Below are positions 1,118 through 1,508 of a DNA stretch of 2,789 bases, piece by piece; the stretch's first letter is position 1, and the number at the start of each line of letters is the position of its first letter. The notes below the pieces were generated by a model. The model searched no databases. It had not been told where the DNA came from and saw only the letters and a program-made list of their open reading frames with translations. The translations under genes were made by a program, and so were the position numbers. This stretch comes from a virus (taxonomy: Duplodnaviria; Heunggongvirae; Uroviricota; Caudoviricetes), in IMG/VR virus record IMGVR_UViG_2778261350_000011, positions 1 to 2,789 of that record. One strand, written 5' to 3'.

Positions 1118-1508
1118 GGTTAACCTCCTGCCTCGGTTCTACTGCAAAATACGCAATACCTTTATCCCAGATGGATTTTATGGTCGTCCACGTGACTGGT
1201 ACTTTAATTTCAATCCGCCCGCTACCGTCACAGGTATCGCAATCATCATCGCCAAAACATTCCGGGCAGCTTATAAACGTCGTTTCTGAAAATTCACCGG
1301 ATAGCACACCCTTAGCGCCGTTCTCAGCGGTTAGTTTCTTCGGCACTATAACCCAACCATCCGGAATTACCGGAGAGTTGCCAGCATTGCGCATGGCAAT
1401 CTCCACGATTTCAACCATATCTCCTGGCGGAATTTTGCAATGCTGACCAAAGCGCCTCTGCTGCCTGGCATACTCGAGGATGTGCTCCAGCTTGGTACTA
1501 TTAATCAT
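1110..1508 (-). CDS. Hypothetical protein with DnaJ-type cysteine-rich zinc-finger motif (CxxCxGxx-x-CxxCxGxG), 132 aa
   Basis: Minus-strand ORF: ATG at 1506-1508, TAA at 1110-1112. GGGAGA sits 6 nt upstream of the ATG. The ATG overlaps the TGA of the upstream gene (ATGA, 1505-1508). Residues 81-97, CPECFGDDDCDTCDGSG (nt 1218-1268), form a tandem CxxCxG zinc knuckle like the DnaJ cysteine-rich repeat. The N-terminal half has PDGWVIVPKK, which resembles motifs common in enterobacterial prophage proteins. Confidence 0.7.
   Translation of the reverse strand: MINSTKLEHILEYARQQRRFGQHCKIPPGDMVEIVEIAMRNAGNSPVIPDGWVIVPKKLTAENGAKGVLSGEFSETTFISCPECFGDDDCDTCDGSGRIEIKVPVTWTTIKSIWDKGIAYFAVEPRQEVNRG

Follow-up and report, generated by a model that had tools for sequence, protein, structure and literature searches.

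A putative zinc-hairpin module with a DnaJ-like cysteine motif, shared by mosaic early proteins of temperate phages and free-standing proteins of environmental phages

In lambdoid and Shiga-toxin phages, the exo-xis or early-left region influences both the choice between lysis and lysogeny and the release of toxin, and to our knowledge most of the proteins encoded there have no known mechanism. The locus described here raises this question for a 132-aa protein which carries a tandem cysteine motif resembling that of DnaJ, but for which Pfam, NCBIfam and PADLOC searches returned no family match and a PHROGs search returned solely families of unknown function. What kind of protein the motif belongs to, and what such a protein may do for the phage, is addressed below for the whole stretch of DNA that was analysed (the window; 2,789 nt, positions 1-2,789 of IMG/VR record IMGVR_UViG_2778261350_000011).

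According to the ORF list, all long open reading frames of the window reside on the minus strand (Table 1). By its DNA matches, the window lies between xis and the recombination genes, in the early-left accessory region that is found in lambdoid or P22-like prophages of Escherichia coli and in Stx phages, and the xis-to-ea22 stretch that holds the 132-aa gene is the early-left operon of a lambdoid E. coli prophage. The annotated locus of E. coli T309 has an identical gene order, which is then followed by RecT and Kil; at this locus the excisionase is annotated torI, and a protein equal in length to our 94-aa product is annotated as an ASCH protein. A protein identical to the 132-aa product is also on record for E. 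coli (P0001). Terminator-like hairpins number 7 when both strands of the whole window are considered, as compared to 2.6 expected, and those on the minus strand at 831-810 and 799-780 flank the gene block. Two of the neighbouring products deserve a comment of their own. The TorI-type excisionase matches the PADLOC model mad1 (mads_1) with an E-value of 7.6e-14, which probably reflects a common excisionase/AlpA-like fold and is not the sign of a defence gene. The 103-aa protein has a CSLCGG...HICLNCVD arrangement similar to that of the C4 zinc finger at the N-terminus of ClpX (PF06689, E 0.015; PDB 2ds7, E 0.054; NCBIfam ClpX, E 0.002); it is a second, distinct zinc-finger protein of the operon and might be a mimic of the adaptor-binding domain of ClpX.

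Table 1. Features of the window, with positions counted from its first nucleotide and residues referring to the 132-aa protein.
Feature	Positions (nt)	Strand	Basis
TorI-type excisionase	1-201	minus	
60-aa protein	259-441	minus	
Terminator-like hairpin with T-run, after the 60-aa gene	269-250	minus	
103-aa protein, phrog_3680	462-773	minus	
Terminator-like hairpin with T-run, before the 103-aa gene	799-780	minus	
Terminator-like hairpin with T-run, directly 3' of the ASCH gene	831-810	minus	
94-aa ASCH protein	833-1117	minus	
GTGGCTAA overlap of ASCH GTG start and 132-aa TAA stop	1110-1117	minus	ORF coordinates 833-1117, 1110-1508
Gene of the 132-aa mosaic early protein, stop codon included	1110-1508	minus	ORF list
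C-terminal helix, residues 107-121, with invariant W107 and K111	1146-1190	minus	
Conserved acidic alpha/beta domain, residues 53-121	1146-1352	minus	
Beta-strand 2 of the hairpin, residues 98-104, RIEIKVP	1197-1217	minus	DSSP on AF2 models
Putative zinc-knuckle pair CPECFGDDDCDTCDGSG, residues 81-97 (C81, C84, C90, C93)	1218-1268	minus	
Beta-strand 1 of the hairpin, residues 74-80	1269-1289	minus	DSSP on AF2 models
LTAENGAK, most conserved motif of the family, residues 59-66	1311-1334	minus	133 sequences
Conserved linker GNSPVIPDGWV, residues 42-52, junction common to many module combinations	1353-1385	minus	
N-terminal module, residues 1-41, two predicted helices	1386-1508	minus	
ATGA overlap of 117-aa stop and 132-aa start	1505-1508	minus	ORF coordinates
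117-aa protein	1505-1858	minus	
Shine-Dalgarno-like AAGGGAG, 7 nt 5' of the 132-aa ATG (function inferred)	1516-1522	minus	sequence reading
95-aa protein	1862-2149	minus	
212-aa Ead/Ea22-like protein	2151-2789	minus	PF13935, E 7.6e-24

The initial annotation had described the gene as overlapping both of its neighbours, and the ORF coordinates bear this out on either side. Upstream, the ATG of the 132-aa gene (1508-1506) overlaps the TGA of the 117-aa gene (1507-1505), an arrangement by which the two genes are translationally coupled; downstream, GTGGCTAA contains the GTG of the ASCH gene at 1117-1115 and the TAA of the 132-aa gene at 1112-1110. The protein would then be translated within a coupled gene block that specifies the Ea22-like, 95-aa, 117-aa, 132-aa and ASCH proteins. 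Similarly, the tandem cysteine motif which had drawn attention to the protein, CPECFGDDDCDTCDGSG at residues 81-97, maps exactly to nt 1268-1218, and the motif is real and non-random. The second repeat, CDTCDGSG, is a full CxxCxGxG; the first reads CPECFGDD and stops at CxxCxG, the final glycine being missing. In the consensus of distant relatives, both repeats are complete.

The assignment of this motif to the DnaJ type is well founded. A profile of the family searched against all PDB sequences matched 1exk (E 7.8e-4) and 2ctt (DNAJA3; E 3.4e-3), followed by the anti-TRAP entries 3lcz and 2bx9 (E 0.12-0.19). In hhalign comparisons, probabilities of 81% for E. coli DnaJ, with only repeats 3-4 aligned, and of 80.5% for anti-TRAP, over 27 columns, were obtained; the negative controls, rubredoxin and the zinc finger of ClpX, gave 1-2%. 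The sequence similarity to both DnaJ and anti-TRAP is confined to the hairpin. On the grounds of its sequence the domain can be placed in the broad class of DnaJ-like CxxCxGxG zinc fingers. At the level of single members, sub-threshold matches (E<=0.1) to the DnaJ cysteine-rich domain PF00684 were found for 48 of 127 proteins, the best of which scored 29.9 bits (E 6.6e-7; P0373) against a gathering threshold of 32.7, and the 132-aa protein itself gave no match to PF00684 at E<=1. Matches to anti-TRAP were likewise sub-threshold; they were seen for 16 of the 127 members, and the cut-off of PF15777 (32 bits) was reached neither by the full protein (12.8) nor by the domain (14.5). As the initial annotation had pointed out, Pfam and NCBIfam searches of the 132-aa protein reveal no J domain. 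The same holds for the 127 family members, in which neither a J domain nor a DnaJ_C domain (PF01556) was found and no gathering score was reached. The pattern of type I DnaJ, with four repeats and two zinc centres, is absent, and both the 132-aa protein and the family consensus have two CxxC knuckles. The knuckle pair is of the DnaJ type, but the protein is neither a DnaJ nor a co-chaperone. Some database entries that contain the domain are named 'molecular chaperone DnaJ' by automatic annotation, and this label is incorrect. We also considered whether the LTAENGAK...GEF segment is homologous to the LTLEEAxxGxxKEI strand located ahead of the zinc fingers in DnaJ, with which it can be paired in the alignment to 2ctt. 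However, hhalign against E. coli DnaJ aligned the knuckles only and no DnaJ_C domain is present, and the resemblance was set aside as a mere lead.

PHROG and tblastn matches divide the 132-aa protein into two parts, a mosaic make-up which the initial annotation had missed together with the modular biology of the domain. Residues 1 to about 56 are similar to the N-terminal parts of DUF551 proteins from HK022, VT1-Sakai and Stx phages; phrog_24004 matches residues 1-53 (E 7e-35), and tblastn matches extend over residues 1-59 or 1-76. Within this part, helices at residues 4-19 and 28-41 are predicted by AlphaFold2 (AF2) with a pLDDT of about 63. Residues from about 42 to 132 resemble instead the C-termini of proteins from other phages that are annotated as Ea22, EaA or hypothetical, and protein searches recover these C-terminal 90 or so residues, often at more than 90% identity, on many different N-terminal parts. 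These parts include Ead/Ea22 (PF13935), DUF550 (dATP/dGTP pyrophosphohydrolase) and DUF551 regions as well as stretches with no recognised domain, and many relatives are annotated as 'Ea22' or 'EaA' and carry the domain at the C-terminus of a PF13935 protein (e.g. P0037 and P0066). In the relatives, the junction consists of a conserved linker, ...ACRAAMLQ(A/G)GNSPVIPDGW.... At the present locus this linker appears in two pieces, GWNACRAAML at the C-terminus of the 117-aa protein (1505-1560) and GNSPVIPDGW in the 132-aa protein, which in many relatives form the single linker ACRAAMLQAGNSPVIPDGW. Because of this, the 117-aa and 132-aa genes look like a fused 'beads-on-a-string' protein that was split by an inserted N-module cassette bringing its own ATGA stop/start. 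The 33 nt of linker DNA are 100% identical in a DUF551 gene which has no zinc domain (H147), suggesting that linkers of this kind may act as recombination junctions for the shuffling of modules.

What is shared between all these mosaics is larger than the cysteine motif. The initial annotation took the knuckle as the feature, whereas it forms an insertion within a conserved domain of greater size. Modeling of residues 50-125 with AlphaFold2 on an alignment of 127 sequences (pLDDT 91.7, pTM 0.71) predicted an ordered PxxLTAENG segment without regular secondary structure, followed by a short helix at residues 65-69, strands at 74-80 and 98-104 with a loop (81-97) between them, and a C-terminal helix (107-121). 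In this model the knuckles form a 17-residue loop at the tip of a beta-hairpin, within an acidic domain of about 70 aa. Structure searches with the domain identified no matching fold among solved structures. The domain has a net charge of -6 and a pI of 4.3, the family means of the net charge range from -4.6 to -6.3, and Asp and Glu residues line the knuckle; such acidity agrees with what has been reported for the portable C-terminal domains of Ea22 proteins (PMC10834534).

All four cysteines, on whose conservation among homologues the initial annotation had made its reading depend, are invariant in 133 aligned sequences, which share 36-57% identity with the 132-aa protein and were retrieved with a profile that included the cysteines. 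Also invariant in this alignment are P56, L59, T60, E62, N63, G64, K66, W107 and K111, next to C81, C84, C90 and C93, and A61, A65, G71, E72, F73, T109, I110 and I113 are conserved to at least 90%. The 132-aa protein fits every invariant column of the PxxLTAENGAKxxLxGEF segment, the cysteine-rich hairpin and the VPVxWxTIKxI(Y/W) helix. None of the four cysteines varies among 147 representatives of enterobacterial clusters either, and single-cysteine substitutions are sporadic, with 2 among 267 enterobacterial proteins. Since the profile behind the 133 sequences contained the cysteines, these were also counted at 56 loci from a genome scan, 49 of which had been collected with the cysteine-free pattern LTA[EA]N[GF]AK[GA]. 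A canonical CxxC-x(4-20)-CxxC tetrad was present at 49 of the 56 loci, and at 42 of the 49 that came from the cysteine-free pattern. Three further loci have four cysteines in the form CxC...CxxC, and two have three cysteines and a nearby His. In another two, from Maribacter (L054) and Phycisphaerales (L057), the insert has been lost, with all or all but one of the cysteines gone together, and LTAENGAK...GEF and VPVxWxxIKxIY are kept; given these lineages without the cysteines, zinc would not be essential to the fold everywhere. The most conserved element of the domain is PxxLTAENGAKxxLxGEF together with the W..IK helix, not the cysteines, which are strongly conserved and yet decorate a still more conserved core. 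Comparison with copies from Citrobacter, Enterobacter and related genera gave dN/dS values of 0.04-0.17, showing that the domain is under purifying selection. The invariant polar residues E62, N63 and K66 could equally well form a ligand or catalytic site or reflect pure folding constraint in a tiny domain.

The domain is very widespread. In an exhaustive HMMER search with residues 40-132, E<=1e-3 was reached by 1330 clusters formed at 50% identity, of which 252 reached E<=1e-30; the matches listed in this search of representatives are near-identical domains only, because it is the fusion partners that differ, and the search yields counts and not distant members. The latter came from the scan of one genome per species, whose 56 loci belong to Enterobacterales, many Pseudomonas, Burkholderiales, Xanthobacteraceae, Cellvibrionaceae, Bacteroidota, Verrucomicrobiota and Planctomycetota. 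A profile built from these distant members retrieved 934 further proteins, and the best 120 of the 934 are mostly free-standing metagenomic proteins of 75-90 aa. Taken together, family members occur on contigs of Proteobacteria, Bacteroidota, Planctomycetota, Verrucomicrobiota and Patescibacteria. At least 329 viral contigs of IMG/VR carry a relative of the domain, as do about 24 of 50,697 cultured-phage records, all of them either unannotated or named Ea22/EaA, and of 5426 complete E. coli genomes, 216 (about 4%) contain DNA encoding the domain. The most divergent homologue from a cultured phage is that of Serratia phage vB_SspS_OS31 (L001, 2704-3237), which has a CRECGGEGCDDCGDAG knuckle with a 4-residue spacer and lies between a HigB-like gene and exoribonuclease, excisionase and integrase genes, an end-of-prophage position as in E. 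coli. Two metagenomic homologues, P0337 and P0365, have a precomputed match to Pfam PF27659.1.

The domain stands alone in 82 of 117 metagenomic proteins and is C-terminal in 244 of 260 enterobacterial ones. Among the 147 enterobacterial representatives, the recognised fusion partners are dATP/dGTP pyrophosphohydrolase (10), Ead_Ea22 (7), DUF551 (5), the restriction-alleviation domain Lar (2) and DUF3850 (1), and 122 have no fusion partner that Pfam recognises. A Lar fusion like those in the two enterobacterial representatives was also seen in Pseudomonas parafulva, where Lar (PF14354, E 1.7e-7) is N-terminal to the domain (L039, match 4001-4261). Metagenomic members for which context is available lie in phage early regions, among small ORFs and near genes for SSB, RecT, Prim-Pol or SbcC-like proteins, and family genes are also found near int/xis in the early accessory region. 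The neighbours at the 56 scan loci are integrases, excisionases, DUF2303 proteins, methyltransferases and other typical accessory genes, and their clustering revealed no conserved partner gene.

On balance we lean towards the interpretation that the domain is a portable, protein-binding effector module of phage early proteins which is built around a putative Cys4 zinc site. This is because it is a portable module with stand-alone forms and an early location, has a polar motif conserved across phyla, is acidic, and has a precedent in DnaJ-like zinc fingers that serve to bind proteins. In such a module, the two consecutive knuckles at the tip of the hairpin would most likely hold one structural zinc ion that rigidifies the hairpin, and the surface formed by the invariant LTAENGAK, GEF and W..IK elements, together with the acidic hairpin, would bind a conserved host (or phage) protein, in a manner akin to the way in which anti-TRAP blocks its target. 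Variable N-terminal modules may add oligomerisation or enzymatic functions. In temperate phages of enterobacteria, the domain is the C-terminal 'cargo' of mosaic proteins of the early-left operon, and in many environmental phages it is a free-standing early protein of 75-90 aa; in the case described here, the GNSPVIPDGW linker joins it to a short two-helix N-module. It might further be speculated, as a rather improbable extension, that the domain is a previously undescribed effector fold whose invariant surface phages use across phyla against one universal bacterial target, for instance in DNA replication, recombination or immunity, with the enterobacterial Ea22/EaA mosaics as delivery scaffolds that bring it together with Lar and dATP/dGTP pyrophosphohydrolase as further counter-defence modules.

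A narrower version of the effector interpretation would assign the domain to counter-defence or host takeover, the mosaics being 'polyvalent' anti-defence proteins that inhibit a protein of bacterial immunity or DNA metabolism. The fusions to Lar and to dATP/dGTP pyrophosphohydrolase are a weak hint in this direction, and the presence of DNA methyltransferases among the neighbours, the position of the gene in the early accessory region beside int/xis and an acidity like that of many DNA-mimic inhibitors are all compatible with it. However, the 122 representatives whose partners lack a known domain, the absence of a PADLOC match and the pro-lysogenic, not anti-defence, phenotype described for lambda Ea22 (PMC7093339) speak against this version, and we regard it as possible but rather unlikely. 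A search of the literature found nothing that links the Ea22/EaA, DUF550 or DUF551 families or the motif strings of the family to anti-defence. Several readings outside the effector interpretation are less likely than the latter. The domain could be a module for homo-oligomerisation. Anti-TRAP, to which the hairpin is similar, forms trimers and dodecamers around its zinc domain, and the C-terminal placement is shared with the C-terminal domains of Ea22. A purely self-oligomerising protein would be of no evident use in the stand-alone versions of 75-90 aa that make up the metagenomic majority, though, and an invariance of polar residues across phyla is unusual for self-interfaces, rendering this role unlikely.

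Mimicry of DnaJ, in which the hairpin imitates the zinc-finger-like region of the host protein and engages DnaK or DnaJ clients, would be in line with the sequence similarity to the DnaJ cysteine-rich domain and with the names of some database entries, and candidate clients would be the lambda replication complex or the TorI-type protein at 1-201, since binding of DnaJ to TorI is described, as cited in PMC9038755 (reference 62), as affecting excision of the KplE1 prophage. The names are automatic annotations, however; J domain, G/F region and DnaJ_C domain are all lacking, only two of four repeats are present and their counterparts in the alignment, repeats 3-4, contribute to separate zinc centres in DnaJ, no structural match was obtained, and the phages that carry the domain are spread over many phyla and have unrelated excisionases. 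We consider such mimicry very unlikely. A role in binding nucleic acids, which the initial annotation had offered as an alternative to protein interaction, would be in accord with the many CxxC zinc knuckles and ribbons that bind DNA or RNA and with an operon full of genes for DNA transactions. It is disfavoured to the point of being highly improbable because the domain is acidic, as is the whole family, and because Asp and Glu line the knuckle; Pfam and PDB profile searches also gave no similarity to nucleic-acid-binding zinc fingers. Finally, the two CxxC motifs might not form a zinc site at all, but a redox-active pair in a thiol-disulfide oxidoreductase or redox sensor, and oxidoreductase activity in vitro has been reported for the cysteine-rich domain of DnaJ. 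Against this, the spacing and the glycine pattern fit zinc-coordinating CxxCxGxG repeats, the protein is cytoplasmic and has no thioredoxin fold, and most lineages retain all four cysteines together, while two have lost them jointly, all or all but one. Redox activity appears to us the least probable of the readings considered. The effector interpretation is the one that we retain, and the initial annotation was right on motif class, and probably right on zinc and wrong on nucleic acids.

Our analysis defines a recurring building block of the exo-xis region as a discrete and very widespread domain. A DnaJ-like zinc finger is here embedded in a widespread uncharacterised phage domain; taken alone, the zinc motif is an ordinary one. 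The family is large and the domain practical to study, as its boundaries are clear, the model is confident, the list of invariant residues is short and stand-alone versions exist in nature. Should there be a conserved target in the host, the domain would offer a way into a general interaction between phage and host; otherwise it would be one more structural zinc module.

How does the domain compare with known systems? With DnaJ (PF00684; 1exk, 2ctt) it shares the CxxCxGxG type of repeat. DnaJ, however, has four repeats and two zinc centres, as opposed to two repeats and one presumed zinc centre in the phage domain, and the DnaJ repeats 3-4 to which the phage knuckles align do not share one zinc ion; furthermore, the J domain, the G/F region and the C-terminal domains of DnaJ are all lacking in the phage protein. 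In another phage example that has been described, the partial DnaJ central domain in DNA polymerases of HMO-2011-type marine phages, there are again exactly two CxxCxGxG repeats and no J domain (PMC9038755). By this description, on which our comparison is based, the insertion lies within a family A DNA polymerase, and no LTAENGAK core is reported.

The Ea22/Ead/EaA mosaics (PF13935) share the genomic region and the operon with the 132-aa protein. The logic of their architecture is also alike: these proteins are mosaics in which a variable N-terminus and a coiled coil form an oligomerising scaffold for interchangeable, acidic and portable C-terminal domains (PMC10834534, PMC7093339, PMC8614690). 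In contrast, the 132-aa protein has no PF13935 region, and the Ea22-like protein of the window is the product of a separate gene. The C-terminal domain of lambda Ea22, for which an NMR structure is available, and those of the V1, V2 and V3 variants (PMC10834534) are not zinc domains and are unrelated in sequence to the knuckle domain.

Anti-TRAP (RtpA, PF15777; 2bx9, 3lcz) is, like the phage domain, small and devoid of a J domain, and has one consecutive CxxC(xGxG) pair, flanking antiparallel strands and a C-terminal helix. It works by binding another protein. Differences exist in that anti-TRAP lacks the more conserved N-terminal PxxLTAENGAKxxLxGEF segment, was not recovered in structure searches with the phage domain, and belongs to the regulation of trp in Bacillus, whereas the phage domain belongs to early genes. 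Nevertheless, owing to the order of two consecutive repeats, flanking strands and then a helix, the single-zinc mini-protein anti-TRAP is the nearest organisational analogue of the phage domain.
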